Origin: Psammoneis japonica | Lineage: Eukaryota | Assembly: GCA_008632985.1 (NCBI GenBank) | Contig: QPGO01000004.1 | Span: 62,001-126,000, forward strand | DNA: 64,000 nucleotides | Direction: 5' to 3' | Part shown: one piece after another, positions 11,878 through 42,300 of the stretch | How positions within the stretch are numbered: the first letter of the stretch is position 1 | Layout of the letters: each line of letters begins with the position of its first letter | Position numbers and translations under genes: made by a program | The notes under the pieces: generated by a model | Databases searched by the model: none | Told to the model about the DNA's origin: nothing | The model's input: only the letters and a program-made list of their open reading frames with translations

Positions 11878-12559
11878 GGTGATTTAAAAAAAAGAGAGAG
11901 ACGGAGAAAGTCACAACCGAATCAATTGATACTTAAGAACGCCACTGGAGCACAGCAACCAACAACAATCGAAATCTCTGGACGATGGAAAATCAACAGG
12001 TGCAACAACGCATAAAGGATTAAGGCCGATGCATGTGAACTTGATCTAAAAAATGAAATAAAACGAAATTCCAAAATACCCGAATGGGCTCGCGCGGCCG
12101 GATCGATCGAGCGATCTGGATGGAGTGCGTGATGGCGACAGGCGCACACCATGGACCAGCGAACAGCAAACAGGCAGTGCACAATGCACAAACCATCCAG
12201 CACGACTGTCGCTGTTGCTGCTGTCGTTTCTACTTTTGAGATTGCTTTCTATTTACAATGGCGCCAAAGAGGATTACAGCAGTGGATGCGAGTGGTGAAG
12301 AGATCAAACAAGCAATGTCAAGCCAATGTTGAAGAGCTCCGCACGTGGATTTCACGGGCTTGGAGTTCGATGGTGCTTGATCAATGGTGACGGATGCAAA
12401 ATGTTGAGCTTCTAGTCACTTGAGGATGGTGGCAAGCACACATTTGATCCGCAACAGCAGAGAGACAGATTCAAGCAAGAATCTGGTGTTGACCGGCGTG
12501 TCAAATGGGAACCGGACGGGAGCCCATCGCTTCGCCCGAACTCCGCTGCCAGCCCAACA

Positions 12560-13830
12560 GCTTTGGTGGAGCTCATGATGAAGGAAATGCATCTTGCAAC
12601 CACAAAAGCTGACAGAGCAATGCCACAATGCTCACTGCCACATGTGGGAAATTTGGAAAAGGACAGATTGACAAAAGAGAATCGCTTTCAGGATTTTCAG
12701 GGACGTGCTGGCGAGGCAAGGGTGCTCACCAAAGAGCAGCAAAACAAACCATCTGTGACAGACAACGAGCATCAACTCATCACCTGCCTGATGCCATTTC
12801 TCGAAGATGTTGGCAAAGGCACAGCCAGGGACACCACTTTCAATTCAGAAAAGCACAAATGGATTGAGGCCAGTTCCGAAACCACCGTTTGCAACGAAAA
12901 GCCGGACTTGATTGTCTGTCACCCTGCCATCGCCAATCCAGACCACCGTTCAAGTGCAGGAAAGACACAAAGTTGAAAGAAATGCAAAAAAGCAGAGACA
13001 AATTTGGTGTCCTTTCCCAATGGAAACTTCTCATGATTTCATTGGTCTGACTTGTGAGGCCAAGCAACATGTCGGCGATGAAGGTTTGGCAAGGTGATCA
13101 ATTGTGGAAAAACACATTTGCTTCAGAAAACATGGTGCTGTGACAACAAGACTGCTCCTCTTTGACAGAAAAAAGTTCTGGCCAGTCAACACTGCAAAAG
13201 GAACAGTTTCAAGCATTCAGACCTGCAGGTGCACTGCAGAGGGATCCAAGACTTTGTGTTCTTGTGGGTTTTTGTTTGCCAACCCCCTTTGGCAAAAGTT
13301 TTGTGCAAGGCTTGCCAGTGTTTTGGCCTCAATGTTGGGACAGATTCCTTTTTGGTGCTGGTGCTGCATTTGGGTGTGCATTCCATGATGCACAGTGTGA
13401 GACCAATGGCAAGGAAATTGCTCTCAAAGTTGTGGTGAAGCAAGGAGGCAATGATGTCATGGAGTGACTGGAGTCCAAAAAAGAAAAAATGATTGCGGCA
13501 AAAGAAAAATGCCCAAGTCATGTTGTGGGTGTGGAGTGTGACAGATTCCAACTGTTCACAGATGGAGCTGTTTTGCTTCTGTTGAGTGTTGGAGAGCACT
13601 GTTCAAAGCTTGCGCTGCAAGACATTGTTGATTTTTGAATGCCCTGCACAGCAGTGGCATCTTGTGTGGCGTTGCATGCCTGGAAATGTCATGTGATTGA
13701 TTTTGCTGTCAGCTCTTTTGCACATGGGCAAATGAGCAGAGATTCCAAGCTAAACCTTCTGTTGACTTGCGTTGAGGAAAGTTCCAACTGTGCAGCATCG
13801 GCTGACCATGCAGCGTCGGCTGGCCAATGA
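12560..13830 (+). pseudogene. Decayed Crinkler-like PD-(D/E)xK nuclease + protein kinase gene
   Basis: Frameshifted pieces: KPDLIVCH...LTCEAK (REase-like), FGAGAAFGCAF (Gly loop), EIALKVVV, ALHSSGILCGVACLE (HGDxR-like catalytic loop) and VIDF. Confidence 0.65.
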
Positions 13831-16800
13831 TGCGTCAAATGACCACTGGTGATTTTTTTGCTCTGTCCCCATGTTTTACAACTGATTTCCTGCCTGCCTT
13901 GGATTGCATCTGAGAGGGGATTGCGTGACCCAGTGCAGTGCCATTTGATCAAAAAATCTCAGCCGTCACATCCAGACAAATGGTCCAGGGCTTCAATTCG
14001 CAACAGAGTGATCACACTGGTTGGGGCCAAGCAATCTTTTCAGACATTTTCTCAATTTTCAACATCAGCTGCTTGCCCACAAGAGCCCTGCGTGTGTTTC
14101 TGTGCACCCCCTCCTTGCACTGATGCCTCCTTTCTCAGATGGTCTTTTGCTGGTTCCCCCAAGGCCACCCTGGCTGTTTTTGCCTGTGGTGCACCCTTGT
14201 TTCAGAGTGACAACCAGCAATCATCATTGGAAAGCAATGGGTGTTGATGCCTTGTGGCCCTCATCATGCTCACTGCATTTTCTGGCAATTTCCCACCAGC
14301 TCTCCAAACTTTCCACACAGGACCTGGCACAAGCTCCACATGCTTCAGAAACAACTGCCAATGGCCACTTTGTCAACTCTTTGCAAACTGCTTCCATCCA
14401 TGCCTGTCACCTCTCAAGGAACTCTTTTTCTGCTGTTGGCCAACCAAGCTCTTCAACTTGTGCAGCAGAGAGTGCTGCCTCTGCAGTGGAGCTTGAGGGT
14501 GTGGCTGCACCTGAGTCAACTTTTGGCATTGCTGCTTGACAGTCATCTGTCTGCTGCACAGATCAGCATTTCTGCACAAGATTTGGCATCATTTCCATGT
14601 GTGAAAAACATTTCTTTCATGCCTTTCTTGTCACATTGTCAATGCTTGTCTCCACCATTTTGCACCTGTGCAAGTCTTGAACATCCCTTCTCTTGTTTGC
14701 TTGTTTGCTGGCTTGCTCATCTCTCTCACAGCTCCATGTGGTGAGCCATTTGCTGCTTTCATTCCAGCACTCAAACACACAAAGTCCAGTCTGTTTTTGG
14801 CAAAAACAAGACCTTTTCTTGGAAGCAGGAGCACTTCTCACTCAGATCTTGTGCTGCTTTTGCACCCTCATCTATGTGTGACCATCCTTTGCTGTTGCAG
14901 TGCAGGTGCTTTGCATCCAGCCCAAAAGAAATCAATGAAATTCCCCTCATGTTTTGCACTTCAGCCAGCTGTCTTTGGTGGGCATCACTGCAAGGTCACA
15001 CTGCAACTGGGTGAGGCCATGACCAGCAGCTGATCCCTTGCCCCTTCTGCCATGTCAGCTGGTGGTGTGCTGGAAGCATGGGTCAGCCTGTGCCAGACAT
15101 CCTGGGCAGTGTTGCAATGGCACTCAAGGTTGGTGGACATTTTTTTGTTTTTCATGCACATTTTCTCAAGATCAGCAGCCATGCATGTGTGTTTGTTCCA
15201 AGCAAGATGCAGCAGAGAAGATCATTTGCAGGATTGGCACCAACCCAGCAAGAAGGGTGCAACTGCATGACTCTTTTCAGTTTGCTCTGCAGTTTTTGAA
15301 GTGTGCTGAATGGTGTGAAAGCCAAGAGGTTGTTTTGTCTGGCTTGTCCAGACTTGGATGTGCCCAGTGACAGCAAGCTTTCTTCTGACCCCCCAGAGTC
15401 AAGATTCACACAAGCATGTGGCCAGCCATGACAAGCCAATGCCATGGCTTCCTTCCTCCACTCAAAACACTGGCTTTGCTGCACCAGATCCACTGGTCAG
15501 AAGAGTTTTTGATGTAACCTGTGTTGAAAGTTTTTGTGTCAGTCAACAAAAGATCTCATCCAGAAAATCCAGGCACAAGGGTGCCGTTGATGACCTGAAG
15601 AGCAAGCTTGATTGCACCAAAAAGACACGAGCAGAGCCAGAAGATGACAAAATTGTCTGGAAACTTGGTCCAACCAAGTGCATTTTTGCAGAGGTTTTGC
15701 AACTGCATTGAGCAAGCCATGGGTCAAGGGTGTTGAGTTGATTGGTGGCTGTGTTCAAGGCAGACTCAATGGAAAAGAGCTCAAGTCTTCTGGCAGAGGT
15801 GCGCCAGCCACATGGGTCCAGTGCATGAAGCCCCACCTGAGGTTGATGAAGATCTTGATCTTTTGGCTCATGAGAGAAAATGCAAGCCATGCTGATGAAG
15901 CAAAAGCAAAAGCTTGCTTTGCCAAGCTTTGCAGGTTTGGCAAGACTGATGTCAAAGAGTCTTGTCAGCACCAAAGGCATTTTGTGCATTTGAGTGCCCC
16001 CAAAAAGCAAAAAGTGGGGGTGCTGGCACACGCAAAAGTGCATTGTTTGCCATTTGATGCCAGCAGGTGAGCCAAAAATCTGGGTGAAAGTTGAGGCAGT
16101 GCAGTGCTTCCTTCAAGCTGCCAAGGTGTGCTTCACCCAGATTTGATCTGAACTGGCTCAACTTTGTCACACAGATCACCAACAACCTTGTCATGCAACA
16201 GTCCCAGCCATTTCTTGAATGAGCCTGCTTCCTTGTTGTCAGCTAGCGCCTTGGCTTTGTCTGCCTTCTTGTGGGTCAATTGAGTGCTGCAAAGAAGAAG
16301 GCCGAGGAACAAAAGTTGAAGGTCCAAGGGCAAAGCTGAGCATGTCAAAAAAGCACAAACTTCTGTTGCTTGTGGCTGCTCACAACCAAACAGCTGAGCA
16401 AAACCAACAGATGGCTGCAGGATTTGTTGTTGCTGTCACCACCATGGCAGAGAAAGAGTGGCAAGAAGTTGTGTGCTCAAATGTGGAAAATCAAGGAAGG
16501 AGGTTAATTGATGAGACCCCCCCATCTTGCAAACACATGCAACAGTCCAATTGGGTGGTGCCAGATTGGCTCTCAGCATCCTTGCGCAGACGGCATCAAA
16601 ATGGAGCCACACAGCCAATGGAAAAAAGGAAAAGACATCTCCAGCAAATGACATGTCCCTGATCAATTTTTGAGACCTGGCACCGGTTTGATGCAGCAAG
16701 CTCACCATGAGAAATTCTCCCAGACTTTTGGGATGCTTGCATGCAGGAGCATGAAATGGGGTGCAAGTGTGCATTGGGGGTTAGGATGGAAGGCACCAGT

Positions 16801-17424
16801 TTCCAGAAATCTTGCGACTCCTCGTGTTCAGCACCATTTCCAGCAAAGCAGTCTTGATTTTTTCAAAAAAGTGCTCAATGAGTTCCTTTCATGACCATCA
16901 TGAAGTGACAGCTTGAGCAAAATGCTTGCAACCTTGCAAGACATGCCACAGCTTTTATTTTCTACGTTGACCAATGTCATGACTGGTCTGTGCCTACAAC
17001 AGCACCGGTTCAATCAAAAACACTGCCTTTCAAGAAGTGTCAATGAAACTAAGTGCAACAAAGCTCCCCACAAGCATTTCCCAAAACCTGCTTGTTGACA
17101 TGCTCTGCATCTCACCCCACCTGACAAGAGTTGACGATCATGTTGCCATCATTCAAACACCAGGGTCATGGACTGAATGACAAATCTCTCAAACATCTGT
17201 CGAAGAGGAAGGGGCATGCCGAACCACATCGCCCATGGCCTCGCTCAAGAGACTCTGCCAAATGAAACAAACTTGGGCTCTCCACTTTTTATGAATTTGG
17301 ATCACATCATCCACAGAATGGTGCTGTTGGTCCTTGGGACTGAAACATTTTATTTTGTCAACACTGCGAGATGGTTTGCAAAGCTTTGGCAGCATGGAGC
17401 AGTGCTCATGCTGGGGTCAGTTCC

Positions 17425-18474
17425 TCACCCAGTGCCCGCAAGATGGGATGGATCCAGTCCAGAATTTCTGGCAACAAACAAGGGCTTGCAATCACCAAGG
17501 CTGTCCATGGTGCATTCAACAATCTTGCGGATCCAGAGCACCTGTGGGGTGGGTGGCTCTTCACTGTGGTTGAGATCGCGACCCTCCAGAAGGTTTTCTA
17601 GCATGCGCCATGTTTGAGGATTGTTCATGAAAAGTTTTGCTTGTTCTTCCCTGAGTTGGGGGCCACCAGCAGCATCCATCATGGCAGCTTCTAACCAATC
17701 AATTGCACCATCTTTATGAATCCAACTAGCACCCAGCTCACCCTGTTCTTTCTTGTTGAGCTCTTCTTGCACCACTTCCTGCATGTCACGAGCACATTGG
17801 CACAGCTTCTTGCACGGTCGTGGATTGAGCTTTGGGTCATTCTCAGCAATGCAAGCAGCCAAATCAGCCATCGTTTGAGCCATGCCATCTGCCATGCTCA
17901 TGCAGGTCGTCTTGGTCATTTCATTCTTGAACTTTCTCATGGCCTTGGTGATGTCTTTGTCAATCTTTTTCGATCCAAGTTGTTTGCAGTTCTTCTTGTG
18001 AACTTTCCAGTGAGCCTTCTGGCAATCAACACCACAATGGCAAGCCACCTGACAGCAAGAGCACTTGAAAAATTTTGTGACAGAAATTGTTGCTTGTCCA
18101 TCATTGTTGCCCTGTGGAGAGCAATGGTCGCAGTCTGGATTCCAGCATGCATTCTCACACGAGCGGTGCTTGTTCTGCGATTTGTCATCCAAGCCATTGT
18201 GCTCGTTCAGCGCAGCCACAAGCTCTTGCTTCTCCACCATCTCCTCTGTTCCAGCTCCAATGCCACGTTTGCAACAAGCTTGCCAAAGTCCCGGGTGCTG
18301 CATTGTTCCATGTTTGTGGTTGACATGAGCTGCGTCTGACTTGCTCAAAGTGCAGTGCATCGTGCATGTTGAATGTGGAAGCCGATGATGAAGATGGCAT
18401 TGCATCATTGCATGGTTGATGGTCTGATGGTGTTTTTTAATGGTTGGGGGAACCACCTGCTGCACTGGTGGCAC
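17425..18474 (-). pseudogene. Mutated MYND zinc-finger gene
   Basis: CWNPDC...FKCSCCQVACHCGVDCQKAHWKVHKKNC (~17985-18150) is the MYND pattern with Arg->Cys and Tyr->His at consensus positions. Confidence 0.75.
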
Positions 18475-18799
18475 GCGCGTGTGAGGAGTTCACGTGCAAC
18501 GTCGCCTGGTGGCACGGGGCGGGGAGGAGCAGACGCGGAGCAAGGGTGGAGCTGAATCATGCAGGTGGGAAAAGGGATGGATTTCAAATTAGGGTTGGAG
18601 AGTTGGGATTGTAGTTTGGTGGAGCAGTGGGTCCATTGGTCAGCAAGTGATTCAGTGATTGCAAGGCTCAGGCTTTGAAGACCCCACTGTGATGGAGTGG
18701 AAGCATGACTGTCGGTGTCAGTCATTGCGTGCGCCGTGTGGAAGCACTTGAAAGCATCTGTTGTTGTCCGATCCTCTGCACTGTGCAACTCACGCACAC

Positions 18800-20410
18800 A
18801 TGACAGATGCAATGAAGAACAAGCACTTTGCATGTCCAGCATCCATCAACAACAAGCAAATGTCAAAGCTTCTTGTGCACCATTGTGTCTTTTGTTTTTG
18901 CAGTTGCCCCATTGAAAAAAAAACTGGCAGTGAACAGTGCCTGCACTGAGCACATGTCTGACAACTGCCAAGCCTCAAGTGTGCATGTCCTCTTGTCATT
19001 GCACAAGAAACACCAGTTGCAGCAACGTTGCTGCAAATGATGTGTGGGAAGCAAGCACTGTGTTTGTGTGCACAAATTGTCCAATGCTCACACCAGCTTT
19101 GTCAGAACAGAAATGGAGCATTTGGTTGTCAGACAAATCATGAGCTGGTGGGGGCAGATGTCCCCACAAACTTCAAACTTTTTTGTGCTGGAAGCATGTC
19201 TTGAGAGACACAAATGGGCACAAATGATTGAAAGAGGCTGCACAATCTGTCACAACTGCAGCTGAGAAAGAGCTCAAGAGAGGTGGCACAGGTGCTCAGT
19301 GATGTTCAGCTCAAGCCTGTCCATGTGGTCAGGAACAGACTCACCCATGACTGCATTTTTGATGCACTTGTGAATCTTGTCGGGTTGGAGGCCACCACTG
19401 CACCAAGTCAAATCATTGTTTTGCAAGCTCTGGTGGGCTTTGCGTTGTCAACAATTGGAGCAACCAGCCAAGGCTGGGCCAAGTGCAATCAAAATCATTC
19501 CTGGCCTGCAAACATTGGTCAACAGTTTTTCCAACTGCTGCCAAGTGGGGCGCGCCATGTTGATCATCACTCCACTGTGGTTTTTGAAGAATGGTTCAAA
19601 TGTTCTTTTTTTGCAAACTTGCATGAACAAATGTGTCAAGAAAGGGTGCGTGGATCAATTTTGGACTGCATTCATCTGTTGTTGTCCCATCCAATGCTCT
19701 GCATTTTGTGCATGTCCATCAATGACAAGCAAGTGTCAAAGTTTGTTTGCCATCACATGCCCCTGTTGTTTGTGGGTGCCCCATTGTCGTCCAGCAATGA
19801 GCACATTGTTGGGGAGATGACTCCTCATGGATGAGCAAAATGGTGGTGAACAGCACCTGCACAATGCCTGACACAACAGCTGCTGAGTTTCAAATGCATG
19901 TCCTGTCATTGCATGAGAAATGACGTCATTGTCAAGAGCAACAAGTCAGCTGCAAATGTGGAAGCACTGTGTCCACACATGCAAATTGTCCAACACCCAC
20001 ACCAGCTTTGTCAGAACAGAAATGAAGCACATTGTGGTGATCAGACAAATCACACATGGGATGTTCCCATGAACTTTGTGGGCTTTTTCCAGAAGCACGT
20101 CAGCATGAGACAAAGACAGGCACAAATTGTTGAAAGAGGCCACACAATCTGTCACAACCACAGCTGAGAAAGGAGCTCAGTGGGGATGGCACAGGTGCTC
20201 AGTGATCATGGTTGGCTCAAGCCTGCCTGTGTGTGGTGGTCAGCAACAGACTTGTCCACAATCACCTTTTTGGTGCACTTGCAAATCTTGTGGGGTCAGC
20301 AGCCACTTCCGCACCAACCAAATCATTGTTGCAGGCCCTGGCAGGCTTTGGCTGTGTTCCCAGCGGTTGGAGAGCAACCAGCCTGGACAGTGCCAAGCAC
20401 AATCAAAATT
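18800..20410. repeat. Diverged tandem duplication, period ~900 bp
   Basis: cacaccagctttgtcagaacagaaatg at ~19089 and ~19998; gaaagaggc..cacaatctgtcacaac at ~19230 and ~20132; ggcacaggtgctcagtgat at ~19285 and ~20188. Confidence 0.85.
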
Positions 20411-21850
20411 GTTGTCCCTGTGAGATGCCACCACAGGCTGAAACTCCAAATGGAACAAAACAAAATCAGCATGCATCCCAAGTCAAACAATGTTGGCACA
20501 GAATGATGTTGTGCTGGTCATGTCATTGTGACAACAAAACATCAAGTGCACACCTTGTTTGCAGAGATGGAAAAAGATTTTACAGACACACTGCACAGTG
20601 GCCTTGCAGGGCAAACAGAGGGTGGCAGAGCAACCTCACACAGCAAGGCAAGGCAAGAAACAAGAGAGGCAATCAACAATGTGGGGTGTGCACCTTTGGC
20701 TGTGCCAACTTCATTGGAAGGAGAAACAGAACACAGGTGTGGACAAAGAAGTTGGCTTGGCAGCAGTGTTTGTGGCAGAAAAAAGTTGAAAGCAAGAGTG
20801 CAGGTTGGCAATGGCAAGCCTCCTTGTGCTCAAATTGTGCAAATTTGCACACAGGCTTTCAATGCTTGTGCACTGCAGGACAGTGCTAAAACAAGAAAGA
20901 TGGGGGGATTCCAGAGGACAGCCTTGCATGACAAACGCAGTTGAGGAGACACAAGAGTGCAGACAAAGGCAAGCAGGGAGGGAACAAGGTGAAACAGGCA
21001 GAAGCACAAACAATGGTGGACCGCAGAAAATGCAGATGAGATTAAAATCACATGCAGCTGCACTGCATGGCCTGCAAAACATTTGTCAGATGAAAAGCCA
21101 CAAGAAGCACAGGTGGTGTGTGCTGAGGTCAACAAGACAGTTGGTATCTGCAACAATGCAAAAGAAAACAAAAATCCTTTTCAAGTGCAAAAAATGTTTG
21201 TGTTTCAAGAATGCAACAAAGCATTGTGTGCATTGCAGGATGAACAAACTGTGCGACATCAAGCTGTCAATGCCGGTCCTCACATGATGTGCGCACATTG
21301 GCTTCTTGGTGCACTTTCAGATTTCCCACATGGCTTGTTCTTCTTTTTTTGCTGCCAGCACACTGTGGCTTGCTCACATGCAAATGAGCCAACAATGCCA
21401 TGTTCCAGATGTGGTGGTGAGTGGTGATGGAATTTGGGCTGTTGCCACTGTCACTGGAAGACGCTCAAGAGTGCAACACCTTGTTGGCAACAGCTTGGGA
21501 GAAGGACGAGCTCTGTTCTTGTTGCAAAGAATGTTGGTGTGACCTTTTGAGGACCACAATGTGTCGCCAGCTCTTTGATGCCAACAGGCTCCAAATTTGC
21601 CCATGCACTGACAAGCCTTTGCATTCTTTTTTTGTGCTGGCAGCCAGTGAGAGTCAGGTGCCAGGTTTTGCACTGTCTGCATGAGCCCAGCACGTCTGCA
21701 GATTTGTGTTCTTGCTGGATGCTTGAGAGCTGTCAAAAGAGACTGCATCATTTTAGAATGCCATCATTGCATTTTCAGTTTTTACAAAGTCAGAAGCTTT
21801 CCATGATCTGGAAGCTGCTCTTGTCAGTCTCAGTGTGGCACAAAAAGTCA

Positions 21851-22577
21851 GAAAATTCTCAAAGCCCTTCTTTTCAACCTCATCTTGAGCTCTCTTCTGC
21901 TTGTTGTGCCTCCTTGAGACATGGGCTCATGGTGTTTTTGATGACTTGGGGACCAGCATGAGAGACACAAATCAATGATGTGTGCAAGTGATCATGAAAG
22001 ACAGCACAGCTTCTGCCACACAAAACAGAGTTGCTCAAAACCCAGCGGGGTGCTGTCCAAGCAACTTTTGCATGAGAGCAAGAGCACAAGAGGATCTGAT
22101 GTTGTGAAATGACAAAAGTTTGAGGCAGACACATCTGCACTGCACTCACTTTCACCACCAGAAGATGCCATTGTTGTCATTCTGCAAGCGCGGTGAAAAA
22201 AATCTGAGCAGGAAAAATTCTCAAAGCCCTTCCTTTCAACATCATCTTGAGCTCTCTTCTGCTTTTGTTTTGCCTCCTTGAGACATGGGCTCATGGTGCT
22301 TTTGATGACTTGGGGCTGGCATTGGAGACACAAATCAATGATGTGTGTGAGTGATCATGAAAGATGACAAAACTGCCACCCAAAACAGAGTTGCTCAAAA
22401 CCCAGTGGGGTGCTGTGTCTGACTTCTTGCATGAGCGAGTGCACGAGCGAGGAGAGGAACTCTGATGTTGTTAAATGACAAAAGTTTGAGGCAGGCACAT
22501 CTGCATTGCACTTACTTTCACCACCAAAAGACGCCATTGTTGTCATTCTGCAAGTGCGGAGAAAAAAAACTGAGGCA
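21851..22577. repeat. Tandem duplication, two ~360-bp units (21851-22210, 22211-22577)
   Basis: Both units run aaaattctcaaagcccttc...gcctccttgagacatgggctcatggtg...caaaacagagttgctcaaaacccag...ccattgttgtcattctgcaag with high identity. Confidence 0.92.
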
Positions 22578-22869
22578 GAATCACAAGCCATTTAGCCAAA
22601 ATTCGAGCTAAAAACAGCAAAGGAGACCCCCCTTAATTCGTGACTGAAAATTGAGCACCCCTTTGAGTCACGGGTTTCAGGTGGGGGTTCGTTTCATTCT
22701 GTCATCTCATTTTTTGCTTTTTGGCGAAAACCGGCGACGGCGACGACTTCTGGCCATAGGCTGAACTACGGAACATCTCTTGTTTGTTTCATTGACCAAC
22801 ACTCTGTGTCCTCTACTCAATGCTTTTTCAAGCGTATTAAAAACGAGTACACTAGGAAATTATTGAGAA

Positions 22870-24804: not shown

Positions 24805-24988
24805 GAGCTCAGCCAAATGCCGTTTTCTGTCGGTACAACAGTTTCAGATAATTCTCTTGTATGAACGTCTAAGCTTCGTCCAAACGTCAGGAACACTGAT
24901 GAGGTTCCTGTCGAGAAGCTTAGGCGTGCAGTACAAGAGAATTATCTGAAACTGCTGCACCGACAGAAAACGACATTTGGCTGGGCTC
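24805..24988. repeat. Long inverted repeat / hairpin (arms ~73 bp, 24805-24877 and 24915-24988)
   Basis: gagctcagccaaatgccgttttctgtcggtacaacagtttcagataattctcttgta...aagcttc pairs with gaagctt...tacaagagaattatctgaaactgctgcaccgacagaaaacgacatttggctgggctc. Inner caggaac/gttcctg stem in the loop. Confidence 0.92.
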
Positions 24989-29856: not shown

Positions 29857-30960
29857 TTAGCTGATACCCAGAGAGTTGTCGTTGTAGGTCGTCACCCCAA
29901 CAGGCAAGGATAACGTCGTAGAAAATAGACCGGAAATCGATTTCTTGGATCGCCGGAACGGTATCCCACTAACAAACTCTTCGACTAATTTACATTCAAA
30001 CTCCACCCCTTTGCTAAATGGTTCATTCCAAGAGACTTCACAATCGAAACCATGCAACGGAAGCACTTCGCAGAATGACTTGGTCAGACATCTTATCAGC
30101 AGAGTCACAACAAAAAGAGCTTCCCAACCATCTCCTGATTGTATCTTTTGCGTTCGAAAGCTCTCCAACTGTTCGCAGATAACTCCGAGACAGCGTCGCA
30201 CCGTTACAGGGAGAACTGGTAGTCTGGATAAAGAAAGAAGAAGTTGGGTCATATGATAAGGTATCCAAAGAGCGATCGGCGTCTTTTCAATAACATCGAC
30301 GTCCATTAATTCACGAAACATTTCAGGAACAAGAGCATAGTCCCCAGCTAACATCGTCATCAACAAAGTTTCAACTTTCTCAAGTGAAACACCTGTGTCA
30401 ACGAATTTCTGTATCGCTCCTTCGCGTCGCTGATGTGGAAAACTGTTTTACATTGCACCGTAATAGAGCAGGATTAATCCCAGGTACAGAGCCGAATGGG
30501 GGCTTAAAGAAGAAGGATAGCCAAGCAAACTCTTGGATCGGGAAAGATTTCGTTCAAGGGGAAGCCTCCTCGTTTTCACTTCTCTCACTTGGGGAGTGCA
30601 TGAAAGATGTAAGCGTATGGTTCACAGAAATCGCACGTGAGAAACGTAGCGAGATCCTCGCTCATGGCAGCCTCCAGCAAATTCAGCTCGTCAATTAGAA
30701 GAACGCACTGGACACTGCCCAACCAGTCTGTCACATCTTCTTTCTTGACAACATTAGACGCAGCAAAAAGGTTGAAACCCCCTGCGTCAGGCTTCCCTCC
30801 TAGAGAGAGAGCGCCGCGAATAGAATTCTGCGGCACAGGCAGGGCTTCCAAAGGACTGTGTTTTTCTCTCAAAGCGATGGCGGCGTCTGACCATTGACCC
30901 TGACAGAAATGATTGACGCATCAGTCTTGTTGTCCTTGTGGAGCGCCCAAGCAATCAAAC
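29857..30960 (-). pseudogene. Frameshifted, 5'-truncated Crinkler-like P-loop NTPase gene
   Basis: Pieces IAWALH...SIISVRVNGQTP, CVLLIDELN (Walker B-like), SPSER/EVKTRRLPL, SALYLGLI, WIPYHM and SGDGWEALF lie in different frames. No Walker A found; sequence switches to unrelated block-2 DNA near 30960. Confidence 0.6.
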
Positions 30961-33330
30961 TTGTCAAAAATCTTCTTTGAAATTGTTGGAAAGAGAGCCT
31001 TGCACTTTCAGGTGGAGCTCTTGTCAACATGGGCATGTTCACATTGCCACTCATGTGCATGCCTTGAGGGAACAGCAGCAGGTGGTCTGTGACGTGCAGC
31101 AGTGGTTGAGAGGGTGATTCAGCAATTTTGGCTTGTGTGCCTTGAACCACTTGTGTTGCCAACTGCATGGTGGGTGCTGAAGTTGTGGTGCGAACAACAA
31201 TGAGCATGGCACCTCTTTGCATCAGGGCACTCACACATGTGCTTTTCGGCAAGTTTTTTGTGTGTGAGAAATCATGGTTGACTTGAGGTTTTGATCAGTG
31301 CTGGAAAGCCAGCACATGAGTTCCATTCACAATCACTTCTGGCACACATTGACCTTGCTTGCTGCTGCAAATTGTGCTCTCTGGCATGATGTCTGCACAG
31401 TCCAAGTCAGTCATGTCAATGGCACACAAATTCTCTCTCGTCAGGAGTGCAGAAAGCAGCGCTCAATCCAGGGCAGGTCCTGAAAGACTGTTGAAGGCAC
31501 AGAAGAGCGTGCTTCTGGAAGGTTGTGACACAGAGTTGCAGGGAAAACCAGAGGGTGGTCTTCAGGTGGCCATGTCACAAACCCTGGCTCAGAGCAGCTC
31601 AGAAGGGACCCCAAGCTGGTGGAGAGCTGTCCACCACCCAACGGGACATTGCTGGCATGCACACAGTTTTGTTCCCCATTGACAACTCCACATTGGATTT
31701 GGCAACAGAGGTCTGGCCATGACATCACAGAGATCCTTGAAGAAGGGAGTCAAAGAATTCTTGTGCTTTCAAAATGCTGACACCCCAAACAATGAGAAGC
31801 AAAAAATCAGCTTTCAATCACTCGCTTTTTCTTCTCACATCAACAACAACAAAGTTGACAGTCAACTGTCATGATCGATCCCATCAGGCAACCAAAGAAC
31901 CACAATGACATGTTGCTGTGATGCTGCGACCCTTTCTTGTTGAAGCTGGCTTTGATGGCATCTTTGAGCCAAGCTTGGCATTCTTCTCTTCAGCTTTGGA
32001 CTTGGTGCTGGCATTGGCATCTTGCTGCACTGCTGAGCTGGCCCTGACTCAGTCTGTTGCAACAATGCAAGCCTCAAGATTGCCATGGTCAAGATCTCAG
32101 ATGGAGTGCTGAGTGCACTTTTTCTGTCTTTGTTTTTGGAATGAGCATGCCCCTTTGACCAATCTGATTGGAGGAGGGCACCCATGACTTGTTTTGGTCT
32201 TTCTGACTGTGTGGCTCATCAAACCTTGGTTTTAAACTGTTCTCACTCATCCAGCTCTGTTGGAGCAGGGACATTGATCACTGTGACTGGATCATTTTGC
32301 AGCTTGGAAAAGGTCCACTCTTTTTTTGCCCACCCACCACACCCAAGGACAAGCGCTCTTCTTGCTGCAATTGACCCAGGGAGTCACTGGAGCAAGAAGG
32401 TCAAGACAGGAATTCCACGTTTGCTCCTTTGAAGACCCTGGCTTTTATGAAGGGAAGCAGGATCTGGTGTTGTCTTCAACTTTGAGGCCAGCATTGTCTT
32501 GCTGTTTGTGACCAGTGCAGTCAAATGCTGGAGGTCACTCCCAATGGACTGCTTTTCAAAACACGCCCGAGGAGCACTGGTTTTTTCTTTTGGCAATGAG
32601 CCCTTGTGCTGCACACAGGACCCTTTGGAGGGTGGGTTTGGGACCCCTCCACCCCCTTGTGCAGAGTGGAGCTTGTGCACCAAAAGCTCTCCTCCATGAG
32701 ATTCCCAAGCACTCCAATGTCAAGTCACTTCTCAGCGGTTCTTGGCTGGCTGGGATGTCAAGGGCTCATGCCAGGGGCGGGACTTTGCGGAGTGGTGCCA
32801 GTTCGGGTTCGTGCAAATCTTCACAAAGATGCATGGCGGAAGCTGAACTCACTGCCATTTGCAACAAGCAACAAGATTGTCTTGCAAAGGATGGAGCAGA
32901 TCTCATGGATTCGGTGGAGGATCATTTGTCACATGGCACGTCTCAGATTGTGAATTGGGCGTCAATGATCAAGCCCCGCCTCAAAGCCAGCGCAAAGGAA
33001 GCAAAGCGTCTCACGCTTCACGGCACATGTTCCATTGCAAGCTGCTTCAGAAGGGCATCACCATCAGGTGATGCCCCAGCCGGCTAGCCCCTTTGTCCCT
33101 TCTGCCGCACCAGCTCAGTGTGCTGGAAGTGTGGGTTGGCCGGCGTCGGCACAGCTGACAATGGAGTGACAGCACTTAAAAATTAGATCTGTTTTTTTTT
33201 TTTTAGTGCCAATTCGGATCCTCCAATCTAGAGAGAGATCGGTGACCCCCGTCATAATGCTTCCAACCACTCATCACAAACAATGAGGATGACGGTTCAG
33301 TCAAGTTCAGTGTTGGGATGCTTCTCTGCT
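30825..33330. other. Hypermutated block 2 (TpA/CpG depleted)
   Basis: By eye no TA from ~30825 to ~32230; few survivors afterwards, mostly TTAA/TTAG/CTAG; Tyr-free overlapping ORFs. Confidence 0.9.
32820..33087 (+). mobile_element. Possible decayed C-terminus of a non-LTR retrotransposon ORF
   Basis: HLSHGTSQIVNWASMIKPRLKASAKEAKRLTLHGTCSIASCF resembles, from memory, the tail of diatom LINE-type RT ORFs (...GxRSIxSYF). No RT core recognised. Confidence 0.3.
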
Positions 33331-33521: not shown

Positions 33522-38136
<4,615 letters not shown>

Positions 38137-38389: not shown

Positions 38390-41300
38390 TCTTAGGGCCC
38401 CGCCGGTCTTTTGGCCAAGTTGTCACGCGCCGCTAGCTCGTCGGTGGCCAGCGTGCTAGAAAGTGGCCCCCCACCTGACAGTGTTGGATGATGGGGTCCT
38501 CCAAGGACGCTTCCCATTGCGCTTGCATCTGGGTCTAGCGTTGAGCGATTCAAAATGCGCCTTGGCTCTGTGGACAAGCCTGTCAGCGCAGTGAAGAACG
38601 CTGAGAGCGGCCGGATTTGCCGGGCTGGCAGATCTCACCCCCACGAGAGGTCGTGCAATGGCAGCTGCTCTCCATGACCTTCGCGCTTCGACTGCTCTTC
38701 TCTGGGAGACCGATTGAAGTGAACACATGGAGGACTCTCTCGTGGAAACTGTCACTTGTGGCTGGGACCACCTGGTCCATTAATTCCTCCTCCTCCACTG
38801 TCACGCCCCCTCCGGCCACCTTTCCAATGTGAGATTCATTGACAACAGCAGTGCCCTGTCCTCCAGCCTGGTGAAGCTGCTGTTCAATCTGAGCAAGCAT
38901 TTTGAGCTGCCGAGCTGTGGCTTCAACATGGTGTTGACATTTGCCAGATGTTGCCACCTTCTCTTGGTTCCAAAAGAGAACACAATGCCAAGAATGCCGC
39001 CACACACCACCAGCAGATTCCTGTTGCCAAGACCTGCCAAAAACAAGCTGGCCTTTTCTTTCACAACCCACCAACTGGCCAGGTGGAGTGTTGAAGAGCA
39101 CTGTCCATGGCAATGTGCAATGGCTCTAGAGGCAAAAACTCCAGCACAAACAGCTGCTTCAGCACCACACACCAGAGAACTTTGCAGAAAAGCTTTCTGC
39201 ACAAGATCCCTCAAAAAAGCCAACAGCGCTGCCTTCAAGCTTCTTCCCAAGACAAAGTCCCTTTCTTGTTGTCACTCTCGACAGATCCACATGAACCCAG
39301 TTGTCTCTGCAGTCAAAGTTGTTGAGAAAACCAGGCTCACAATTGTCTCCCCACCCCCCACCCCCCCCCCCTGCTGGAGCTTGTGGTGCACAGTCATTGT
39401 GTTGTTGCACAAAACTGGGAAATGGGTCATCTGCATCCTCCAACTGATTCCAGGAATTCTCTTGTGAATGAAACCCATTGCACAGCAACAGGAAAGTTGA
39501 CAGTGCATGACTGAATGTGAGACAAGCCTTGTGCTCATGATGAGATGCCTGAAGACAATGGACTCAACTTGTGAAACAGAGGCTGACCTCACCCAACAAC
39601 CATCAATCCTGACCTTGTCAACTCCAAATCATCCAAAAAACACCTTCTGACAGCTCTGATCCCTCAAACAAGCCAACAGTGTTGCTGGCCTCCTTCTTCT
39701 CCACTCTCTCATTGAGGCTCATTGTCAGAGAAGGTGACGACCATGGGAAAGCTTGAGAAGTGGGTCCACATGCCTGTTGATTCATTCCCAGCTTGCTTGA
39801 TGTGAACATCTTGAAAGGCTGCAAACAAAATGTCATTGGATGTCTGATCTTGAAAATCTGCATGCTTGCACCTGATGTTCTGCTTTTTTCCATTTGAGGT
39901 TGCTTGCTTGGAGCAGGACAAGGCCAAGGCCAGTGGGTGGCTGTGGGGGTGGGGGGGTGGAGGAGGTGGCTGTGCAAGAGATTTTGAGTTGTTCCTTCTG
40001 TGGCACCTTCTTCTTGAAAATGCCATCATTGACAGCATTCCTTTCAAGATTGGCGGCAACAGCACAGGCTGCATTTCTTGGGATGTCACTTTCCAGTTTT
40101 GCCAGGCCCAGGTGCAACCACATGCTCATTGATTTCCTTTGCATCATCTGTGGTCAACTCTTGAATTGTTCAAAAGCATGAAAGAATCTCACCCTGCACT
40201 GCTGGATCATCTTTAAATCAGTGGTTTCCTCTGAGTTTGACGAAACAGCTCAGCTGTTCTTCATGCTGCCAGCCATTGTTCAAAGTCTTTGTGGATGAAC
40301 AACAGATGATGATTGATGCTCTTTTGGATCAGCGGCATTGACTGTTTCATCTCAAATGCATGTTCATGAAGACAATGAGACACAGCCGTTCAGTGAAGCA
40401 TCCAATTCATTTGAGGTGAGACTAAAATTTGAAGCAACGGAGGCCCCACACATTTGATTTCAGTTCACTTTAAGCACACAGTTATGAAGAGCCCACAAAG
40501 AATGGAGGGGAACAGCAGGAGGAGGCACAGTGGCAGCTGCAGTGGTGGCAGAGTGGAGCGGGGTAAAAATGGTGGACGCAGGGCACGTTTGGTTGAAGGG
40601 ACAGGGGACGTGGGGGCAGGGAAAGTGGAGGCAAATCAAAGGGCATGCACAGAGAGATGGAGGACCACATTGCAGCTGAGGGCCTGAAGAGCCCATTGGG
40701 AGGGAGAGGCAGTGCGGTGAGCACTGCCAAAGCAGTTGGAGGACAGGTGTTGCTGCGCAGAGTCAGCTGATGGAAGAAGGGCAGATGGAGAGGATGAGGC
40801 ACAGAGGAAGGCGGAGCATGAGGCATCAGAGTGTCAGGAGTCAGAGGGAGAAGACCAGGGAGGCTTGGATTGAGATCAGCTGGAAGAGAATGTAGAGCCA
40901 AAGAGAAGCCGAATGGGCAAAGCATCCAAGGCCACCCAGGTGATCAACGGTGCAAGGGAGAAGGAAGACGCCGTCGGTGTTGAGCAAAGCAACAACAACG
41001 GAACCATCAGCAGTGGGGGTGGAAGGGCCAAGAAACTTCAGCCTCATGCTTGCATGGTGTGCCTCAGTTAACTTGGGGGAAGAGGGAGCAGGCAGACCGG
41101 GGGGGGGGGGGGAGAAGGAGCTTGGGGCACGTTGACGTCGGCTGGAATGCAGTGATGACAGGAAGGGGCCAAAAGCAAGGCAGGGGGGGGGGACAGAAAT
41201 GCCAACATCGGCAGGGCAAAGGAGTGGTCAAGCAGGGAGCAGGTTGAGGGGTTCAAGGTGAACATCCTTGGAGTGGCGACATCGCGTTTGTTTGCACGTG

Positions 41301-42300
41301 CTCAGCTCGTCACGAGCTTTTGATCGACACATGGGTCATGGGGTCTGTGAGGTCATCAGAAAAAAACCATTCTCAACCATTGACAGACTGTCGGCACCGG
41401 TTGGTCTGTCTGCCACATCTCTTGTCTTCTCTTTGATGCCTTTTTCTGATTTCTGACATGCACTTTCTGTTTCTTCACTTTGTTTCCCCCCCAAAGATTG
41501 GAGCCACCATGTCGAAGCATTCCTCCTTTCTGTCGTTCTCCCCCACTCCTCTTGTTTGGGAGGTCATCATTGTCATGATGATGTGAGTGCATGCCCCTGT
41601 GAGCAGGGGCAGAAGGTTTCGATGCTTGTTGTGGAATTCCTCTTGTTCAAGGTGTCCGAGTCAGAAGATTTTGTTCTGACTGTGATGCAAGTGGCTGCCT
41701 GCAGTCAGAGACTCAAAGATCTGTCTGAAGACACCTTTTGTGCTGATCTCTCTCCTGAGTCAAACACGTGTTCTGGTTGCAGTGGGATGAAGTTTGGAGC
41801 ATGCAATTCGTGCTGTTGCAGCTGTGCCCGAGAACGAGGAAACGGCGGTCATCGAAACTGCAAAGAGTTGCTCTCACATTTTCAGCAGGTCACTGGAGAT
41901 GAAATCCCTCCCTGTGCAGTGGCCTCTGATTGTCCCATTTCGTGCCCTCCAGCTGTTCTTGCTCTTCAGGAAGCTGCGGAGGCATTTGTTGTTGGACCCT
42001 TTGAGGATGCTGGCATTTCCACAGGCCAGAGCTGTCTCGATGCCATTGGGACTTTGTTGCTTGGCTTGTTTGGTTGTGAAGGTCCCCACTCGAGGACATC
42101 ACAGGTGGCGAGTTCCCATGAGATTTGTTTCTGAGTGAGAGAAGAAGCCAGGAGATGTGGGGCTTGTTTGCTGTTGGCAATCAGTTTGACATTGGCAGTG
42201 TTTGCATGTGTCAGCAGTCAGCAGTCCACTTCTTCTTGCCCTTGCGTGGCGTGTTTACCGCACGTCCATGCTCCGCACAAATCACATTTTTATTCGCCAC
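38390..42300. other. Hypermutated block 3 (TpA/CpG depleted), probable decayed repeat or transposon
   Basis: TA very rare and mostly in CTAG/TTAA; Tyr-free overlapping ORFs; G/C homopolymers at ~39350-39371, ~39944-39957 and ~41099-41112. Confidence 0.88.
41952..42008 (+). pseudogene. Histone H3-like fragment (alpha-2 helix)
   Basis: AVLALQEAAEAFVVGPFED versus H3 AV(M/L)ALQEA(S/A)EAYLVGLFED. Confidence 0.65.

Follow-up and report, generated by a model that had tools for sequence, protein, structure and literature searches.

The window analysed here, a stretch of 64,000 nucleotides from contig QPGO01000004.1 of Psammoneis japonica, holds three blocks (approximately 12280-22590, 30822-33084 and 38537-42255) in which nearly all TA and CG dinucleotides are mutated to TG or CA. 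The process that removes TpA is sequence-selective: its rate peaks at R-T-A-Y, falls to an intermediate level where the flanks are mixed and is lowest at Y-T-A-R, with TTAA as the most refractory site. In our opinion, the blocks are probably nuclear-contig stretches of a pennate-diatom-like organism that were decayed in place by two targeted transition processes, of which the flank-selective one at TpA is likely to proceed by adenine deamination.

Extent, content and polarity of the decay

The blocks and their parts were delimited as follows:

12280..22590, no strand: block 1, TA-depleted, from the TA/CG positions at the borders and 200-bp and 1-kb counts; CG erasure spans approximately 13080 to 22430
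30822..33084, no strand: block 2, TA-free; CG depletion limited to approximately 30945 to 32735
38537..42255, no strand: block 3, TA-depleted; CG depletion from approximately 38742 to 42244, partial past 41200
12280..12550, no strand: TA-only margin of block 1, TA gone and CG intact
32736..33084, no strand: TA-only margin of block 2, TA gone and CG intact
38537..38741, no strand: TA-only margin of block 3, TA gone and CG intact
16243..18611, no strand: island in block 1 where mutation is less complete, with 16 of the 27 TA survivors of this block and many CG survivors

For counting, the blocks were cut to 12501-22500, 30951-33000 and 38701-42200 (15,550 bp in total) and compared with a background of 45.4 kb of flanking sequence, which, in place of the true ancestors, serves as a proxy for the ancestral tetramer make-up. 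On this basis 38 TA are left where approximately 611 would be expected (0.06x of the flanking frequency) and 196 CG instead of approximately 919 (0.21x, about 722 lost), while TG and CA are raised to 1.59x and 1.46x of background; a loss of about 1295 TA and CG is thus balanced by a gain of about 1180 TG and CA (TG +644, CA +536). AA is undepleted (0.99x) and the GC content is unchanged at approximately 0.48. The ratio of observed to expected TA lies between 0.02 and 0.1, and the longest TA-free interval measures 1969 bp, compared to a maximum of 191 bp in the background.

In the three TA-only margins taken together (825 bp), a single TA is found against 32.4 expected, whereas CG is close to expectation (44 vs 48.8) and TG plus CA reach 151 instead of 118.7 (+32). 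Since these margins have lost TA without losing CG, the TA process is able to act alone. The CG survivors have a flank preference of their own, with RCGY being spared in core and mid bins (29 vs 16.2 expected; YCGR 11 vs 17.7). Methylation-driven decay may underlie the CpG to TpG/CpA conversion seen in the blocks, but it would leave the loss of TA unexplained.

The direction of change follows from unmutated relatives (one paralogue of the same sample plus four relatives from metagenomes), in which TA, CG and Tyr occupy places that read TG, CA and Cys or His in the window. Between 12280 and 12608, 18 of the 37 listed differences from the paralogue with support from run X2 lead from TA or CG in the paralogue to TG or CA in the window (10 from TA, 8 from CG), compared to one in the reverse direction. 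In the four relatives, observed/expected ratios are 0.44-0.68 for TA and 0.8-1.2 for CG. Recognisable block content consists of a kinase-like multi-copy gene and a MYND-finger gene, which are listed here together with two tandem duplications:

12455..13782, + strand: hypermutated member of a kinase-like gene family, from homologue P0271 (Pkinase, 33.1 bits), codon tables, the four metagenome relatives and the X1/X2 paralogue
17428..18489, - strand: open frame of 354 aa with a MYND zinc finger (Pfam zf-MYND, E = 1e-4; alignment with six homologues)
18839..20174, + strand: old internal tandem duplication of approximately 905 bp, with 30 TG/CA discordances between the copies
21852..22574, + strand: tandem duplication of approximately 362 bp at the right border of block 1, from copy comparison

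The kinase-like copy shows frame changes and an in-frame TGA, and its 432 aligned codons contain no Tyr and 5.3% Cys, compared to 1.9-2.7% Tyr in the four unmutated relatives and P0271; conserved Tyr has become Cys in six cases and His in one, and Arg positions now read Cys, His, Gln or a stop. The MYND-finger frame, which has 250 library matches at E <= 0.001, mainly across the finger, likewise carries His for a conserved Tyr and Cys for a conserved Arg of its family. No transposon or viral Pfam domain was found in the 54 block ORFs, nor any transposon or viral domain in a six-frame read-through of 12201-15800, the part of the blocks covered in this way, and the one block ORF queried against viral_contigs gave no match.

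The 30 discordances of the older duplication are explained by ancestral TA or CG sites that were resolved independently in each copy. In the duplication at the border of block 1, the outer copy retains TA (22513) and CG sites at which the inner copy reads CA or TG. The three blocks are not copies of each other, even when compared by purine/pyrimidine class alone. The summed word depth of the X1 contigs, which can be taken as a rough guide, reaches about 2-4 times the flat level of a single contig at 11901-14700 and about 23 times at 18301-18700. Positions 18676-21677, however, are covered by one X1 contig only (at least 3 kb of single-copy sequence at >=80% likeness) and are nevertheless fully mutated.

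Flank context of the surviving TA sites

An earlier note, made from the letters of this DNA, had proposed that about half of the TA surviving in 13750-22520 are YTAR and only one is RTAY. The count bears this out, as the 28 TA in this range comprise 14 YTAR, 11 YTAY, 2 RTAR and 1 RTAY, the latter being the very site that had been named:

21144..21147, + strand: GTAT, the sole surviving RTAY of the three blocks (NTAN count)

The same note had described the survivors in the other two blocks as mostly YTAR; these are TTAA and TTAT in block 2 and six YTAR, one YTAY, two RTAR and no RTAY among the nine of block 3. In the island at 16243-18611, 10 survivors are YTAR, 5 YTAY, 1 RTAR and none RTAY.

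Across all three blocks, 21 YTAR survivors stand against 5.96 predicted by the NTAN composition of the flanks, 16 with mixed flanks to 20.1 and one RTAY to 11.9 (chi-square p = 2.5e-11, n = 38; binomial p = 2.3e-8 for at least 21 YTAR and 1.1e-5 for at most one RTAY), and ATAN is absent among the 38. Scaled to the flank expectation, survival amounts to 22% for YTAR (21 of about 96), 5% for mixed flanks (16 of about 323) and 0.5% for RTAY (1 of about 192), such that the depletion of RTAY and YTAR remains far from equal after normalisation to tetramer frequencies. An excess of YTAR is present in every class of 300-bp bins sorted by their remaining CG (5/9, 8/14 and 9/16). Because transitions cannot alter the purine/pyrimidine class of a flank, the flank class of the survivors is the ancestral one. 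This non-random subset of survivors speaks for a sequence-selective mutator, in agreement with the idea of the earlier note that an enzyme-like preference rather than neutral drift is at work.

When hazards of the half-sites, defined on each strand by the base that follows the A, are estimated from the survivors, values of 2.45 for T, 2.30 for C, 1.11 for G and 0.44 for A are obtained. Pyrimidine half-sites are hence about 3-fold faster (Y/R ratio of hazards with a 95% bootstrap interval of 2.1-4.6), and letting the rate differ between half-sites improves on a single uniform rate (likelihood-ratio chi-square 46.8, 3 df, p = 3.9e-10; residual deviance 15.1).

One could argue that the survivors are recently formed TA, or that the ancestors already had many YTAR and few RTAY sites, so that the context would be uninformative on the mutator. 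Only about 1.5 kb of the 15.5 kb indeed has a known ancestral sequence, and ordinary C>T changes must recycle some CA or TG into TA. From the NCAN and NTGN of the blocks, however, one would expect 9.24 YTAR and 8.62 RTAY where 21 and 1 are observed (p = 1.5e-5 and 7e-4), and if new TA were removed again, the context would still show the preference of the remover. In addition, the TA content of the unmutated relatives is ordinary, and the 12 TA conversions that can be polarised from the DNA of the paralogue, with 5 RTAY and 2 YTAR, are close to the background make-up, from which it follows that RTAY sites existed ancestrally and were converted. We therefore regard this explanation as very improbable. 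Even less credence, close to none, can be given to a sequencing or assembly artefact caused by modified bases that a long-read base-caller misread, or to RNA hyperediting followed by retro-copying. Single-base gaps between the window and the X1 contigs (3-18 per 1.1-3 kb) and a beta-galactosidase gene that is split over three frames could be brought forward for an artefact, and the window assembly probably does carry indel errors. At the level of substitutions, however, window and X1 contigs agree to 99.4-100% within the block; contigs assembled from X1 alone reproduce it with 0-16 substitutions per 1.1-3 kb, and as these were built independently from a public run, a base-calling artefact does not account for the blocks. 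Moreover, miscalls on two strands would not remove TA, and the block borders have graded margins that do not match the ends of repeat units. ADAR-type hyperediting with retro-copying was rejected as a candidate since it predicts strand-coherent A>G on one strand, whereas TG (+644) and CA (+536) are both raised in the same stretches without strand runs (z = +2.08, -0.66 and +1.05 for blocks 1-3).

One-strand reading versus duplex recognition

The earlier note had further proposed that the mutated A is preferred in 5'-TAY-3'. The part of this claim that concerns the unequal depletion of RTAY and YTAR stands, but a strand-specific reading of TAY is only partly supported. The survivor counts are mathematically identical under a pyrimidine 3' of A, a purine 5' of T or a duplex R-T-A-Y, and an additive two-strand hazard model (negative log-likelihood -9.33) describes them just as well as a multiplicative duplex one (-9.24). 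The models can be told apart only by the way in which mixed sites were resolved, and this evidence is equivocal. Eight of the directly polarised mixed-context sites are in favour of TAY and three against it (one-sided binomial p of approximately 0.11, computed by hand and not significant), and as four of the eight are Tyr codons on one strand of one gene, an effect of the transcribed strand may have contributed. Over the blocks as a whole, products predicted by TAY have gained 405 and the opposite products 193. This bias, however, grows with the loss of CG and is absent in 17 bins in which 92% of TA is gone and about half of CG is kept (predicted-product fraction 0.532, background 0.543). A test over six contexts with hazards taken from the survivors alone gives r = 0.65 for the assignment to the 3' neighbour and -0.57 for the reversed one, although two of the six contrasts deviate from the prediction (A..C 0.72 vs 0.53, C..A 0.67 vs 0.37) and the test is confounded by CG.

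It could be imagined that the alternating purine-pyrimidine tetranucleotide R-T-A-Y is sensed as a whole, either by the mutator or through DNA breathing at the TpA step, with the flanks setting the total rate and not which adenine is changed. Besides the equal fit to the survivors and the bins that largely keep CG, the TA-only margins, in which predicted products are raised by 6 and opposite ones by 14 over 825 bp, and the lack of strand-coordinated TG or CA runs speak for such duplex recognition. As it is at odds with the 8:3 lean of the polarised mixed sites, with the change of all four Tyr codons in YTAY context to Cys and none to His and, subject to the influence of CG, with the six-context test, we consider it unlikely, albeit the strongest competitor of a one-strand reading. 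A primary lesion on thymine at TpA, for example enzymatically oxidised or otherwise modified and miscopied as C, appears improbable to a higher degree. Thymine derivatives may miscode as C, an altered partner of the A:T pair is indistinguishable in sequence, and the flank rule would simply become a purine 5' of T, since an event in 5'-RTA-3' has the same outcome as TAY on the other strand and all counts are symmetric under this relabelling. Specific support in the present counts is lacking, however, and the authors of the study on Bigelowiella natans prefer adenine deamination as the cause and present an ADAT2-like candidate (bioRxiv 10.64898/2026.01.13.699255).

Possible mechanism and relation to known systems

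The observed conversions, their polarity, their confinement to blocks and their dependence on flanks are probably accounted for by two processes acting on decayed gene-like and partly multi-copy DNA. The first converts TpA to TpG/CpA almost completely and reaches 200-350 bp past the second at three of the six block edges, while the second converts CpG to TpG/CpA in the block cores only. For the first, the likeliest chemistry would be that of an enzyme which deaminates adenine to inosine at TpA in DNA, as proposed for B. natans, and a pyrimidine 3' of the A would favour either this enzyme itself or the accessibility of its target base. In the anticodon loop U-A-C-G of TadA/ADAT, the edited A has a pyrimidine (U/T) 5' and, for TadA, also a C 3', whereas in the loops edited by eukaryotic ADAT the A is followed by G, A or C; for ADAR, a pyrimidine 5' of the edited A and a G 3' of it are preferred. 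All of these are RNA enzymes in nature. By way of analogy, as already drawn in the earlier note, the 3' C of the TadA site fits the high hazard of the TAC and TAT half-sites, unlike the preference of ADAR, as TAG half-sites are only about half as fast as TAY.

Fungal RIP was likewise rejected, as its C>T changes at CpA give an excess of TpA and an AT-rich product, whereas the present blocks have lost TpA and gained CpA and TpG at a constant GC of about 0.48. With RIP of ascomycetes, the blocks nonetheless share block-wise, dinucleotide-specific transitions in silenced and partly repeated DNA and the independent resolution of duplicates. They differ in that RIP turns CpA into TpA and lowers GC, and in that a stretch of at least 3 kb of single-copy DNA is fully mutated here, without an evident duplication trigger. 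Diatoms are described to carry DNMT4 genes related to the RID enzyme of RIP (PMC9998398). Transposons of Pucciniomycotina reportedly undergo hypermutation at TCG/CpG; this, as well as methylation decay, resembles our case in the change of CpG to TpG/CpA with a preferred pyrimidine 5' of the C, but leaves TpA untouched.

TpA-specific DNA hypermutation has been reported only once so far, in a 2026 preprint on the chlorarachniophyte B. natans. According to this source, mutation-accumulation lines show block-wise A:T>G:C hypermutation at TpA only, integrated viral DNA is targeted and adenine deamination is proposed (bioRxiv 10.64898/2026.01.13.699255). Both cases have in common that TpA transitions on both strands yield TpG and CpA in discrete blocks with largely unannotatable, decayed content. 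The host there, however, belongs to the Rhizaria and not to the diatoms, GC>AT is not raised there, whereas the erasure of CpG in our cores amounts to an excess of G:C>A:T, and its TA observed/expected ratio of 0.45 in the NCLDV region compares to 0.02-0.1 here. Moreover, the targets there are viral, whereas kinase-like and MYND-finger genes are found here and a viral origin of the blocks is putative at most. The words 'CpG', 'trinucleotide', 'flanking' and 'context' are absent from the main text, which thus leaves flank selectivity undescribed (bioRxiv 10.64898/2026.01.13.699255). New compared to B. natans are therefore the diatom host, the coupled erasure of CpG, the TA-only margins and the flank selectivity.

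One could speculate, tentatively and against the balance of probability, that diatoms possess a dedicated genome defence that is RIP-like but chemically distinct and destroys TpA and CpG, the two pyrimidine-purine dinucleotides that are self-complementary, in marked DNA. Adenine deamination at R-T-A-Y/TAY would come first and reach wider, cytosine deamination at YCG would be confined to the core, and the TpA arm would be the B. natans system and old within SAR. In its boldest form, a single ADAT2/TadA-like deaminase would perform both reactions, its tRNA loop U-A-C-G holding TpA as well as CpG; this is less likely, given that the margins lose TA without loss of CG.

A TpA footprint in a diatom would extend the phenomenon to a major algal group, where it is much deeper, joined to the erasure of CpG and bordered by TA-only margins. 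The flank rule, with RTAY fastest and TTAA slowest and survival differing about 40-fold, represents a biochemical fingerprint by which the same process may be spotted in other genomes, and it can be used for testing candidate deaminases and for deciding between single-strand and duplex action. On a practical note, such blocks break gene prediction and inflate the number of Cys/His-rich, 'zinc-finger-like' ORFs.

Erasure of TA and CG and the flanks of the survivors

The three blocks (approximately 12280-22590, 30822-33084 and 38537-42255) carry the imprint of a flank-selective TpA mutator that acted in place on the DNA, beside a separate CpG-erasing process. The self-complementary pyrimidine-purine dinucleotides TA and CG are near-absent in all three at a steady GC content of ~0.48. 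Counted within 12501-22500, 30951-33000 and 38701-42200 (15,550 bp) and compared with a background of 45.4 kb flanking sequence at least 500 bp away from every block, 38 TA (0.06x the flanking frequency) and 196 CG (0.21x) are left, and TG and CA are raised to 1.59x and 1.46x, respectively. Scaled to block length, a loss of ~573 TA and 722 CG (1295 in total) is matched by an excess of 644 TG and 536 CA (1180), and the longest TA-free interval measures 1969 bp within the blocks vs 191 bp outside.

At three of the six block edges, TA erasure outreaches CG erasure by 200-350 bp. In these TA-only margins (12280-12550, 32736-33084 and 38537-38741), 1 TA remains vs 32.4 expected, CG is found 44 times vs 48.8, and TG+CA are in excess by 32, as many as the TA lost; in the block cores, TA and CG are each ~95% gone. 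The margins together with the doubly erased cores exclude a single process whose relative rates are fixed: TA erasure is able to proceed by itself, and the CG process is confined to the cores. Among CG survivors, RCGY is spared both in core bins (9 vs 4.2 expected, p = 0.015) and in mid bins (20 vs 12.0, p = 0.010, with YCGR depleted at 6 vs 13.2), which argues that a C after a pyrimidine is more often targeted.

The earlier note had described the TA survivors of 13750-22520 as rich in YTAR with one RTAY, and the count bears this out: the 28 TA there comprise 14 YTAR, 11 YTAY, 2 RTAR and 1 RTAY (GTAT, 21144). The same holds across all blocks.

TA survivors in the three blocks by flank class (mixed, YTAY or RTAR), with expectation from flanking NTAN and survival relative to expected TA
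YTAR: observed 21, expected 5.96, survival 22%
mixed: observed 16, expected 20.1, survival 5%
RTAY: observed 1, expected 11.9, survival 0.5%

The survivor pattern is thus confirmed to lie far beyond chance (chi-square p = 2.5e-11; binomial p = 2.3e-8 for at least 21 YTAR and 1.1e-5 for at most one RTAY). Normalised to the flanking tetramers, RTAY and YTAR are depleted unequally in the window's blocks, as the note's reading demanded. TTAA survives best (9 of ~21), and ATAN is absent from the 38 survivors. Since the purine/pyrimidine class of a flank is immune to transitions, the survivor classes reflect the ancestral sequence. The pattern is the same throughout, with YTAR shares of 5/9, 8/14 and 9/16 in bins with few, some and many CG left, and TA and CG survivors co-cluster weakly (200-bp bins; rho = 0.16, p = 0.16). 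A half-site model, with one hazard per base 3' of A on each strand, fits well (residual deviance 15.1; vs a uniform rate, chi-square 46.8, p = 3.9e-10).

Half-site hazards by base 3' of A, with bootstrap 95% intervals
A: 0.44 (0.17-0.80)
G: 1.11 (0.77-1.63)
C: 2.30 (1.83-2.98)
T: 2.45 (1.88-3.49)

Two other origins of the survivors were considered and rejected. New TA arising from CA and TG within the blocks would predict 9.2 YTAR and 8.6 RTAY (p = 1.5e-5 and 7e-4), and the four survivors within a recurring TTATGAA are not copies of one element, as their wider flanks are unrelated. In the unmutated flanks, GTAC is the most frequent NTAN (170) and the YTAR tetramers are the least frequent (TTAA 62, TTAG 64, CTAA 70, CTAG 84), an order opposite to the one expected under weak TAY-directed pressure across the genome.

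The strand on which the flank is read

The earlier note had further proposed that the mutated A is preferred in 5'-TAY-3', read on one strand, and had likened this to an enzyme preference. The latter stands in substance; from our point of view, the one-strand 5'-TAY-3' reading is leading but unproven. "Pyrimidine 3' of A", "purine 5' of T" and "duplex R-T-A-Y" yield an identical survivor table, and an additive two-strand and a multiplicative duplex model fit the survivors equally, so that survivors cannot decide the strand; the one informative measure is which way mixed sites were converted.

Block-wide, the products predicted by TAY (YTGY and RCAR) gain 405 vs 193 for the opposite products (background sampling SD 35 and 25), and over six independent flank contrasts the correlation, with hazards from survivors only, is r = 0.65 if these are assigned to the 3' neighbour and -0.57 if the assignment is reversed. 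This directional bias is ambiguous, because CG conversions enter the same product classes and the bias tracks CG loss (rank correlation with remaining CG, rho = -0.46, p = 6e-4).

Predicted-product fraction in 300-bp bins by remaining CG
CG <= 2 (21 bins): 0.632
CG 3-5 (15 bins): 0.582
CG >= 6 (17 bins): 0.532
background: 0.543

The 17 bins richest in CG retain 16 TA vs ~200 expected, and in the TA-only margins (825 bp) predicted products gain 6 and opposite ones 14. A regression over the 16 flanks for TA vs CG direction is not identifiable, with six parameters for six independent contrasts.

Mixed-flank TA sites that could be polarised fall 8 for TAY and 3 against (one-sided p ~0.11, binomial by hand).

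Polarised mixed-flank sites
for TAY: 12280, 12548, 12603 and 13737, and the Tyr codons at 12785, 12890, 13103 and 13600
against TAY: 12284, 22147 and the Tyr->His change of the MYND gene (see below)

As four of the eight sites in favour come from codons of a single gene, all on the same strand, we keep the reading at the grade given. Strand-coordinated (processive) conversion was looked for in the blocks and none was seen. ADAR-type RNA editing was also considered as a source and rejected, both strands being affected equally and without strand runs. ADARs prefer a G 3' of the edited A, whereas TAG half-sites are here slower than TAY.

Reality and direction of the changes

Base-calling errors in the assembly are a very unlikely source of the blocks, as the block sequence is reproduced by contigs from X1, which like X2 is a sequencing run of the one public sample containing the stretch, and the X1 reads hence carry the TG/CA version. 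Contigs built from X1 only differ from the window by 0 substituted letters over 16428-17559, 12 over 13673-16457 and 16 over 18676-21677, the discrepancies being chiefly single-base gaps (3-18 per 1.1-3 kb). X2 covers the flanks and not 13901-22700; its run type is only guessed, and this says nothing on expression. A family-2 glycosyl hydrolase (beta-galactosidase) at 33525-37890, between blocks 2 and 3, is spread across three ORFs that adjoin or overlap one another in different frames. Together with the single-base gaps, this suggests indel errors in the assembly, and frame breaks in the window consequently need a check before they are taken for pseudogenes.

The same runs contain diverged paralogues; 213 pieces fall into identity classes of 31, 35, 40 and 107, and they differ from the window mostly by transitions. 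Over 12280-12608, one paralogue was compared with the window on a sample of the differences (40 of 330 differing places), at the 37 places with X2 support. Among these 37, 10 are TA and 8 are CG in the paralogue and TG or CA in the window; 1 runs in the reverse direction and 18 are unrelated changes. In the paralogue's 30-letter overhang after 13720, TA and CG likewise stand where the window has CA and TG. The two copies of an old 905-bp tandem duplication in block 1 differ at 30 TG<->CA double changes, the outcome expected had each copy resolved its ancestral TA or CG on its own.

Two gene-like stretches of block 1 could be compared at the protein level:
12455-13782, + strand: decayed copy of a kinase-like gene in the left part of the block, matching the homologue P0271 (510 aa) at E = 1.5e-47
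17428-18489, - strand: MYND-finger frame of 354 aa, with 250 library matches (E <= 0.001), most of them to the finger

A homologue search with ORF 12416-12973 at near lengths returned nothing, and the extended search led to P0271, whose own Pkinase match is weak (33.1 bits). Four environmental contigs (metagenome loci L001-L004) carry unmutated relatives, which at the protein level are 48-70% identical to P0271 and whose TA and CG contents are ordinary (observed/expected 0.44-0.68 and 0.8-1.2); the family is hence widespread in diatom-like organisms of the environment. Tyr is missing altogether from the window copy over the 432 aligned codons, vs 1.9-2.7% in the relatives, and Cys makes up 5.3% vs 1.5-2.5%. 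Opposite nine aligned Tyr of P0271, the window has 6 Cys (TGY), 1 His (CAY) and 2 Phe; at the five columns with Tyr in at least three of five relatives and Cys or His in the window, 4 are Cys and 1 is His. Seven Arg of the gene have become Cys, stop, His or Gln (TGN or CAN codons). P0271 and the window also differ by His<->Cys (CAY<->TGY) at 13320, 13665 and 13745 (P0271 residues 342, 456 and 483), which is what an ancestral Tyr, resolved twice independently, would give; the gene copy of P0271 may thus be partly hypermutated too.

The MYND finger is genuine, and in its frame a conserved family Tyr has become His and a conserved family Arg Cys. Block ORFs over all frames contain 6.0% Cys, 4.9% His and 0.1% Tyr, and such Cys/His-rich, Tyr-poor ORFs can mimic zinc-finger-like proteins. 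In a preprint on Bigelowiella natans, a zinc-finger Pfam domain is reported as enriched among TpA-depleted CDS (10.64898/2026.01.13.699255).

Known systems, targets and surroundings

That preprint is the sole matching paper found. In mutation-accumulation lines of B. natans, two integrated viral regions mutate ~1000-fold faster than the remaining genome, and of the 231 changes in these regions 230 are A>G or T>C, all of those at TpA; an ADAT2-like deaminase is proposed, and the main text makes no mention of CpG, flanking, context or trinucleotide (10.64898/2026.01.13.699255). The literature searched, outside of which most subscription journals lie, yielded no account of TpA erasure in diatoms, with or without CpG erasure. 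The footprint is of a kind known only since 2026, here in a new lineage, and adds to the published account a CpG arm, the TA-only margins and a quantitative flank rule. Diatoms carry DNMT4 genes of unknown function related to RID, the enzyme of fungal RIP (PMC9998398). RIP differs in kind, since it creates TpA, which is erased here.

The blocks are not mutual copies, even at the level of purine/pyrimidine class, and no terminal repeats are detectable. Pfam searches returned nothing but zf-MYND, whether run on 54 block ORFs, on one read-through piece or on 12201-15800 read through in six frames, and viral contigs scanned with one ORF gave no match. In the sample, some block parts are multi-copy; just one contig spans 18676-21677. 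What was targeted is thus decayed, partly repeated gene-like DNA, which may or may not derive from a virus or transposon. Within block 1, 18301-18700 reaches a summed X1 word depth of ~1350 vs ~58 for single-copy parts, and several contigs skip 73-90 bases there; this high-copy, length-variable repeat keeps more CG than its surroundings.

Normal, unmutated sequence at 24805-24988 holds an inverted repeat (57 nt, 93% complementary, 70-nt spacer). Gene density is high in the flanks, and their open frames are long; an exact search of a protein collection for 10 flank ORFs recovered none. Two flank proteins lead us to treat the window as nuclear DNA of a pennate-diatom-like organism and not of Bigelowiella. 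One, with a DUF6824 domain, has its nearest atlas clusters mostly in Bacillariophyta, and the best named relatives of the other, a JmjC/cupin protein, are from Bacillariaceae sp., Cylindrotheca and Nitzschia (55-66% identity).
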